Shown here: positions 2,665 to 3,138 of the stretch, piece by piece
How the letters are laid out: the number at the start of each line of letters is the position of its first letter
Position numbering within the stretch: the stretch's first letter is position 1
Source: Eledone cirrhosa
Lineage: Eukaryota
Direction: 5' to 3'
Assembly: GCA_964016885.1 (NCBI GenBank)
Contig: OZ024740.1
Span: 105,400,001-105,464,000, forward strand
Length of the DNA: 64,000 nucleotides
Position numbers and translations under genes: made by a program
The notes under the pieces: generated by a model
Databases searched by the model: none
Told to the model about the DNA's origin: nothing
Seen by the model: the letters and a program-made list of their open reading frames with translations, nothing else

Positions 2665-3138
2665 ACCACTTCTTGCTCTCCTTGCTCTCCTTTTCTCATT
2701 GTTCTCATTGCTCTCCTTTTATGCATTCTCTCCTTGCTCTCCTTTTCTCCTTGCTTCCTTTCCTCATTGCTCTCTTTGCTCTCCATGCTCTCCTTTTCTC
2801 ATTGCACTCCTTGCTCTCCTTGCTGTCCTTGTTCTCCTTTTCTCATTACTCCACTTGCTCTCACTTTATCCTTGCTCTCCTTGTTCTCCCCTTTTCTCAT
2901 TGCTCTCATTGCTCTCCTTTCTCATTGCTCTCCTTTTCTCCTTGTCCTCCTTGCTCTCCTTTTCTCTTTACTCTACTTTTCGTTGCTTCACCATCTTTGT
3001 TTGTTTACACTCTCGTGTCCCTTTTATTTACGTGTCCCAACGACTTTTTTTTAGCCGTTGCTCGCACCAACCGGAGGTATATGGTCTTTAAAGCGATGAA
3101 ATACCAATGATGGTTGGAAGATCACTGATAAAGGACTA

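Follow-up and report, generated by a model that had tools for sequence, protein, structure and literature searches.

A predicted split-core S-G-C hammerhead in a retrozyme-like repeat family of Eledone cirrhosa, with a likely inactive copy

The stretch at position 3067 of the DNA analyzed here (64,000 nucleotides of Eledone cirrhosa, contig OZ024740.1 of assembly GCA_964016885.1; hereafter the window) is, we conclude with good confidence, a copy, likely inactivated by a G8A change, of a likely self-cleaving hammerhead with S-G-C block order and a split core, carried by a ~633-nt non-coding repeat. In all likelihood this repeat, family X, derives from an element of the Naiad kind and is non-autonomous and retrozyme-like. 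Judging from published sequences, what appears to be the same fold recurs as a motif in the 3′ UTR of Naiad Penelope-like elements.

Results

The locus contains a family X copy with a G8A change

The locus (2975-3295) consists of a 5′-truncated family X copy, a (TA)n stretch, an inverted tail and a second tail, in that order. The truncated copy (plus strand, 2975..3143) belongs to subfamily B; it represents the last ~170 nt of the ~633-nt non-coding unit and ends in (TA)n. The (TA)n target microsatellite at its 3′ end (plus strand, 3143..3180) is followed by an inverted family X tail fragment (minus strand, 3192..3270) and a second tail fragment (plus strand, 3262..3295), both of which lack an S and a G block. 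A preliminary description of this DNA had noted G8A in the first copy (CUGAUAA, position 3130) and an intact CUGAUGA at 3266-3272 in the neighboring fragment, and both are seen. The 3262-3295 fragment retains four of seven bases of stem I and sits within a 59-nt palindrome (3237-3295) formed by the inverted fragment and the second tail; it is an inversion-junction tail only, not a ribozyme. Rescue of the 3067 copy by the 3266-3272 fragment was rejected as unlikely on this anatomy, i.e. no S or G block, a partial stem I and a palindrome.

In hammerhead chemistry, G8 serves as the general acid. The core signature CUGANGA/GAAA/NUH, in register with stems I and III, is found in family X, and the 3067 copy departs from it at G8. 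This is the sole private change in its core, a G being present in all 29 of the nearest siblings fetched. C3 is unchanged in the 3067 copy, and with A8 opposite it the C3-G8 pair is lost. Hammerheads have a C3-G8 pair with a natural U3-A8 covariation, and natural A8 variants carry U3 (PMC4209133). We predict that the 3067 copy is most likely dead.

The family X motif is predicted to fold as an S-G-C hammerhead with an opened core

The motif starts at 3034 and spans 3034-3136, all on the plus strand; the extent first assigned to it (3067..3136) was too short. The 5′ strand of helix Q, GUCC (3034..3037), pairs with 3133-3136 and closes the domain; 97.5% of its alignment cells are paired, it is present in the MFE fold, and its bases are changed in families W, Y and V and in the coral-type loci described below. 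Hairpin H (CAACGAC/GCCGUUG, 3038..3060), likewise in the MFE fold, changes on both sides in 3 of its 7 pairs across subfamilies. The '10' strand of stem II, UCGC (3062..3065; 95.8% of cells paired), is supplied from upstream instead of from after CUGAUGA, a register backed by W, Y, V and the coral-type loci. It is followed by CCAACC (3067..3072), the 5′ strand of a helix bracing stems I and II (PK; 93.1% paired, double changes in 3 of 6 pairs), and by the unbulged strand of a predicted kink-turn (3n, G2n, A1n; 3073..3075). Block S provides the stem III strand GGUA, U16.1 and A17 (3076..3081), with a predicted cut at 3081/3082 after the triplet AUA, positioned by analogy to hammerheads, and runs into the '1' strand of stem I, UGGUCUU (3082..3088; 96.7% paired, double changes in 4 of 7 pairs). 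Past the linker UAAA, the '11' strand of stem II, GCGA, and U11.1 (3089..3097), block G holds G12-A13-A14-A15.1 and the stem III strand UACC (3098..3105). The bulged strand of the predicted kink-turn (bulge AAU, then G1b, A2b, U3b; 3106..3111) leads to the 3′ strand of the brace, GGUUGG (3112..3117), which pairs with CCAACC, and then to block C, made up of the stem I strand AAGAUCA and the core CUGAU[A]A (3118..3131), in which the bracketed base is the G8A change. The motif ends with an extra A, which may pair with U11.1 and is missing from one tandem subfamily, and the 3′ strand of helix Q, GGAC (3132..3136).

The blocks follow one another as stem III-UA-stem I, GAAA-stem III and stem I-CUGAUGA, or S-G-C. 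None of the circular orders C-G-S, G-S-C and S-C-G (hammerhead types I, II and III) is found in family X. We predict that the motif is a hammerhead in this non-circular order, the chain being opened at A9/10.1 by a four-way junction. In a model of the arrangement, the core would stack on stem II and H on Q, the brace would connect stems I and II at their distal ends, and the kink-turn would bend stem III toward the brace. The fold as first drawn missed stem II, with its upstream strand at 3062-3065, as well as helices Q and H, which complete the predicted four-way junction.

The consensus for kink-turns of the box C/D type is a 3-nt bulge, then tandem G-A and A-G pairs, between two helices. 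The sequence between stem III and the brace fits this pattern in family X, where a kink-turn is predicted: G2n, A1n, G1b and A2b are kept in 60, 57, 60 and 59 of 60 copies, while the bulge and the 3b/3n pair vary. The pattern is absent from family V and the coral-type loci.

Across the alignment of 60 family X copies, 94.6% of the 2,040 cells of the 34-pair model are paired, and double changes occur in 13 of the 34 pairs. None of 500 shuffles scored as high and slid registers reached 27-51%; since the 60 rows are related and were hand-picked from 113 distinct full-length X-type sequences to cover the subfamilies, the shuffle result overstates significance and yields no P-value, and the conservation of the core within X is partly built into the selection of rows. 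Stem II of family X has 4 Watson-Crick pairs only, with no double change; the double changes in this stem come from other families. A canonical stem II following CUGAUGA was rejected: its five-pair register is paired in 40% of cells, no better than slid controls, and a stem of at least 3 bp in this position is present in 1/213 X hits, 3/24 Y hits and 0/28 coral-type hits. A stem II stacked on the A9/G12 core is obtained only via the upstream strand, with 11.1 being C in V and the coral-type loci, and U in X and Y.

Some observations count against these assignments. There is a competing register (GUUGCU/AGCGAU), which would break H, multi-copy subfamilies carry mismatches in the brace (CCAACC with GGCUGG or AGUUGG), and family X, with its U11.1, lacks a G10.1-C11.1 pair. 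Folding without constraints returned Q, H, the brace and stem III, but with weak nested MFE z-scores in X and Y (-1.0 to -1.7); the score for V was -2.9. No Rfam family matched the window at its gathering score.

Compensatory changes mark a subfamily

We compared the stems of the 3067 copy with those of the three minus-strand family X copies at 51.4-52.9 kb. As had been described, stem I UGGCCCU/AGGGUCA has become UGGUCUU/AAGAUCA (3082-3088 with 3118-3124), through two C-G to U-A changes, and stem III GGCA/UGCC has become GGUA/UACC (3076-3079 with 3102-3105), through one double change; the UA, GAAA, linker and CCAACC/GGUUGG are unchanged, in agreement with the same account. The six stem changes fall into three complete pairs; the probability of this, calculated post hoc, is 0.002 if 11 pairs are considered and 0.0005 if 17 are. 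They had been ascribed to a diverged copy; instead they mark a large subfamily, all 40 scored genomic matches to the 3067 stretch (of 797 candidates) being 98-100% identical to it. Wobble intermediates are found as subfamilies (GGUA/UGCC and UGGCCUU/AAGGCCA). The sequences support a scenario in which compensation passed through such intermediates in the master lineages, which is its usual path. The idea that a pseudoknotted hammerhead is under selection gains support from the 60-copy alignment and from unrelated families, but this selection would have acted on the master lineages of subfamilies, not on the 3067 copy.

Sequence-unrelated families keep the same helices

Family Y was found via a chance neighbor. 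The strand preceding its GAAA (AGCGUU) pairs with an upstream AACGCU, and the bases following its CUGAUGA pair still further upstream; family X is arranged alike (UCGC/GCGA and GUCC/GGAC), with a hairpin in between. A strand-order descriptor derived from X and Y gave 5 hits in the window, four to family X and one to family V, compared to 1 core hit and no full hit in 60 dinucleotide shuffles, 7.7 Mb in all. The family V copy (plus strand, 48364..48479) has every helix changed relative to X, has G10.1-C11.1 and a GUC site, and would be cut at 48423/48424. Family V has 954 candidates, of which the 40 scored were all 98-100% identical.

Apart from short simple stretches, no similarity in sequence could be detected among families X, Y and V. 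Covariation is also seen in copy W (L247), and W, Y and V keep stems I and III and the upstream stem II with different bases. Read across eight lineages, pairing holds in 48/48 cells of stem I, 32/32 of stem III and 37/40 of stem II, the three misses all falling at 11.1 in X, which may pair with the base following CUGAUGA. All families retain U16.1, H17 (A or C), GAAA and CUGANGA against a background of changing stems. In the family Y variants L235, L246 and L252, U11.1 is changed to A and its upstream partner A is deleted together with it, consistent with the upstream register.

Family X is an abundant non-coding repeat with Penelope-like insertions

About 7,900 copies of family X are present in the genome as ~633-nt non-coding tandem units in (AT)n. 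A pattern for the 3′ half of the motif had 7,941 genomic matches and a pattern for the full span 6,434, with none for the reversed controls. Units of subfamily B measure 632-635 nt; those of subfamily A, in which simple repeats have expanded, are mostly 690-770 nt long. Contigs from one sample also contain the repeat and its variants. No coding signal was detected in the units, whose longest ATG ORFs are 45-96 aa, and no match to a Penelope-like element protein was found within them. All 40 scored copies of subfamily A are 100% identical and spread over different chromosomes, indicating that this subfamily is young. It forms a tandem array on the minus strand of the window (51430..52878), with units of 634 and 668 nt, whole motifs at ~51493-51594 and ~52161-52262, and a third copy that is 5′-truncated. 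Mosaic copies of the family also exist. One tandem subfamily (L201, L210-L219, L224-L230) has lost the extra A after CUGAUGA, yet is present on many chromosomes.

Family X copies are 5′-truncated, tandem, often inverted head-to-head, and end in (AT)n. They show the insertion pattern of Penelope-like elements, i.e. 5′ truncation, inverted and tandem copies and (TA)n targets. Among 108 copies, the 3′ end lies 60-69 nt past the predicted cut in 33 and 100-124 nt past it in 44; 26 run on and 5 end otherwise.

The window is rich in (AT)n and Penelope-like elements. A decayed Penelope-like element with RT-like ORF pieces occupies 4552-6300 on the minus strand, with a related piece at 33766-34113. 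It has a conventional minimal type I hammerhead at 6293, with an extra A after CUGAUGA, a palindromic stem III and a first 12 nt that match block C of family X. On the plus strand, 22684-24825 holds a broken Penelope-like ORF in which a GIY-YIG-like end comes after the RT; a pair of 465-nt inverted repeats (21910-22373/25708-26171) precedes it. Three copies of a very AT-rich 1.1-kb repeat (53445-60153, one inverted) each contain CUGAUGA (54448, 58884, 59142), possibly as part of a hammerhead with a long stem II, and lie beside a Penelope-like RT fragment (54998-55807). In a ~525-nt tandem unit (49870-50968, minus strand), AGAAA comes immediately after CUGAUGA, and a GAAUC located upstream has the potential to pair with the bases after CUGAUGA; this is possibly a collapsed hammerhead and fits neither descriptor. 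Very long simple repeats are found at 36414-38212 and 61207-62121, with about 600 (TAG)n and about 460 (AT)n units, respectively.

Naiad elements and coral-type loci carry a similar motif

In the portions of Craig et al. 2021 considered here (PMC8557442), Naiads are reported to lack a canonical hammerhead and are marked 'HHR_core' or 'HHR_half_core' only, with 8 'half cores' flagged, Naiad_Ovul included. We judged by eye places 1-58 of the 62 CTGATGA occurrences in the corresponding supplement, for the CTGATGA spelling only. In this part of the published sequences, the 3′ ends of 9 Naiads fit the split wiring (including Naiad_Obim and Naiad_Ovul; one has two stem I pairs only and one is degenerate), 2 fit type CSG with block C intact and 1 is unclear (PMC8557442). 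Places 34 and 35, in the nematode part of the portion viewed, look like clean type CSG by eye, with a brace helix and a short I-II linker; type CSG is known so far from two metagenome sequences. The linkers of the family X motif resemble the published Octopus Naiad consensus.

A coral-type consensus motif (3′ half only) fetched at least 120 metagenome loci. They fall into two subfamilies that keep the helices and covary in Q, stem I and the brace. At one locus (L322), the motif lies ~0.3 kb behind the end of an ORF that is 65% identical to the C-terminus of P0028. P0028 has 953 aa. Its N-terminus holds a GIY-YIG (E 7e-4, which falls short of the Pfam cut-off), followed by CxC and DKA, and the RT is C-terminal; this order is described as diagnostic of Naiads in the sections of PMC8557442 consulted. 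An autonomous Naiad would have an ORF upstream of the motif; family X has none, and the coral-type loci have an ORF end only, at L322.

As far as the published Naiad descriptions considered here go, family X and Naiads are alike in their (TA)n targets, 5′ truncation, tandem and inverted insertions, and the fold at their 3′ ends. They differ in that family X has no detectable protein and no Naiad partner was found for it in the E. cirrhosa genome. There, the Naiad_Obim motif pattern had no match, none of 140 scored hits corresponded to the 86-aa ORF end, and GIY-YIG hits with long ORFs have the endonuclease after the RT motif wherever it can be placed. Naiad-like RT remnants in the genome, mostly with stops, have no descriptor hit within 1.5 kb, no Naiad ORF was found beside the motif, and the unit sequences meet Naiad-like RT loci only as separate insertions. 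Subfamily A is thus young, yet only decayed Naiad-like RT remnants were found in the genome. No element that mobilizes family X was identified in this search; it may belong to another Penelope clade.

Copy ends as an indirect record of possible cleavage

The 5′ ends of copies are indirect evidence that cleavage may occur in vivo, the signal being strong in the coral-type loci, weak in X and absent in Y. Of the 120 coral-type loci listed, 99 have at least 60 nt of upstream sequence; 36 of these run through or have indels and 63 are truncated, 61 after removal of duplicate flanks. Of the 61, 42 start 3′ of the predicted cut and 16 at the cut or up to 2 nt before it (9 exactly), 58 in all, and the other 3 within the next 41 nt, in both subfamilies. 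Assembly is biased toward short coral-type copies, which does not explain the position of the edge.

The family X junctions were drawn from the first 100 of 476 matches, giving 98 loci after merging. Among the matches listed, 8 of 18 inverted junctions and 9 of 33 non-AT flanks (P about 0.017) fall at the cut or 1 nt before it. The site reads AUAUA and has microhomology with (AT)n targets, and AT flanks are therefore uninformative. In family Y there is no pile-up at the cut, with 1 of 12 ends between the cut and cut+2, and 7 beyond. Two of the 8 inverted junctions of family X, the head-to-head inversions L092 and L165, have both arms readable as ending at U1.1, joined directly or via a 14-nt insert.

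Stalling of RT at a structure is unlikely to cause the 5′ pile-up, as we infer that the 3′ partner strands would already have been copied by the time RT reached the site. A transcription start at nucleotide 1.1 is a formal alternative source of the 5′ edge.

Discussion

A model for family X amplification

We propose that tandem copies would be transcribed and that intact siblings would cut after A17 by standard hammerhead chemistry, with G12 as the base and G8 as the acid. A Penelope-like RT/endonuclease borrowed in trans would nick (AT)n and prime on the AT-rich tail, 60-125 nt past the cut. When copying the linear 3′ product, RT would run off at nucleotide 1.1, yielding mini-copies that start at the cut, while a re-ligated circle or an uncut multimer would permit read-through and give long and tandem copies. 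Cervera and de la Pena have put forward read-through on a circle or multimer for the hammerheads of Penelope elements. The cut-to-cut monomer would hold both halves of the fold at its ends and could re-ligate without forming a dimer.

The main challenge to this model is that the fold derives from a hammerhead, but that family X cuts poorly or never and keeps it for its structure, such as to offer the borrowed protein a site to bind, with cleavage confined to families that have G10.1-C11.1. The U11.1 of X in place of C11.1, the brace mismatches in subfamilies that nonetheless spread, the spread of the subfamily lacking the extra A, and the missing pile-up in Y, which also has U11.1, would all fit this view, as would the finding that 8 of 9 predicted Xenopus retrozyme dimers failed to cut in vitro. 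It is harder to reconcile with the retention of U16.1, H17, GAAA and CUGANGA in all families despite the turnover of the stems, and with the pile-up of X inverted junctions at the cut, and we consider it unlikely. A plain type SGC, with block C intact, a one-pair stem II (A-U11.1) and the upstream helices as accessories, is less probable still. The base after CUGAUGA can indeed pair with 11.1 in 57/60 rows and covaries once (A-U to U-A in W). The rest of a canonical stem II is unpaired, however; in Y, V and the coral-type loci, 11.1 pairs upstream within a helix of 5-6 bp, and the upstream strand runs straight into the brace, as does the '10' strand in the published SGC-1. The X chain may open one pair later (10.1/10.2), which would still split block C.

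The last explanation to consider dispenses with a selected fold altogether, the paired changes resulting from transition bias, gene conversion or chance among thousands of copies. All three changes are transitions, mosaic copies exist and the structure was chosen after seeing the sequences. The unrelated families X, Y, V and coral-type nevertheless keep all helices in the same order, the stems pair almost without exception over the eight lineages (48/48, 32/32 and 37/40 cells for stems I, III and II), and no full descriptor hit arose in 7.7 Mb of shuffles. This explanation is largely refuted, and we give it hardly any weight. A hammerhead with a split core, likely self-cleaving in intact copies, remains our preferred reading of family X.

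Wider implications

A broader proposal, which we regard as rather probable, is that the Naiad clade and its parasites natively use hammerheads with a non-circular permutation. Nematodes would have type CSG, and cnidarians, cephalopods and other invertebrates a seventh permutation with an opened core, its A9-10.1 link replaced by a four-way junction and its stem III sometimes braced by a kink-turn. The ribozyme would cut in vivo and set the 5′ end of the retrotransposition template, and the monomer would circularize without a dimer partner.

If true, this would overturn the printed statement that Naiads lack hammerheads, and the printed view that the CUGAUGA block stays with its stem II strand. 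Non-circular permutations of an RNA, for which environmental sequence and a single doubtful case in bacteria are the only known sources, would be present in many thousands of copies in animal genomes, missed by every current descriptor. The sharp 5′-end edge at the predicted cut would make the role of Penelope ribozymes in retrotransposition directly testable. A hammerhead that is monomeric, clamped at several points and entered at its core by a free helix would also offer a new scaffold for structure work and RNA switches.

Comparison with known hammerheads and retrozymes

We found type SGC only in Eckert et al. 2023, and no permuted hammerhead in Naiads, retrozymes or cephalopods, in a literature search that covered the text of freely available papers and some supplements. 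Forgia et al. 2023 (PMC10162972) is cited in PMC13725137 for extra-helix or permuted hammerheads; the word 'helix' is absent from its main text, and its figures and supplements could hold a precedent, as could a further reference cited there.

According to the sections of Eckert et al. 2023 considered (PMC10085705), type SGC (HRIMA-1 and variants) cleaves in vitro, at rates of 0.007-0.13 per min, and has not been found in the genomes of known organisms. A linker of 3 nt is typical of it, and in SGC-1 the '10' strand runs straight into the brace. The search pattern used in that study, as far as it is described there, requires CGAAA and CUGAUGA(U)G together with a contiguous stem II, and would therefore miss the family X fold. 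Family X shares with type SGC, as presented in those sections, the S-G-C order, the pseudoknotted stems, the short I-II linker, the I-II brace and the core. In family X, unlike in type SGC, the '10' strand of stem II and the brace strand precede block S, Q and H enter at A9/10.1, a kink-turn is predicted, and the sequence is animal genomic DNA. Block C, which is uninterrupted in type SGC, is split in family X, whereas Eckert et al. assume in the same sections that blocks are uninterruptible (PMC10085705).

Minimal Penelope-like hammerheads come from the same class of element as family X, likewise have an extra nucleotide after A9, and share the proposed role in cleavage and circularization. 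They differ in being C-G-S, with almost no stem III and a need for dimers, whereas in family X stem III is full and a monomer is predicted to suffice for the fold. Animal non-LTR retrozymes, in the parts of the two sources covered, are non-coding tandem units of a few hundred nt with one hammerhead each, derived from and mobilized by Penelope-like elements (bioRxiv 10.64898/2026.07.22.740005; PMC6765202). The main text of the former defines and searches for them by type I hammerheads only, with no mention in that text of a permuted form, a pseudoknot or a cephalopod. Family X resembles these retrozymes in its tandem non-coding unit with a single hammerhead, and differs from them in that this hammerhead is not of type I.
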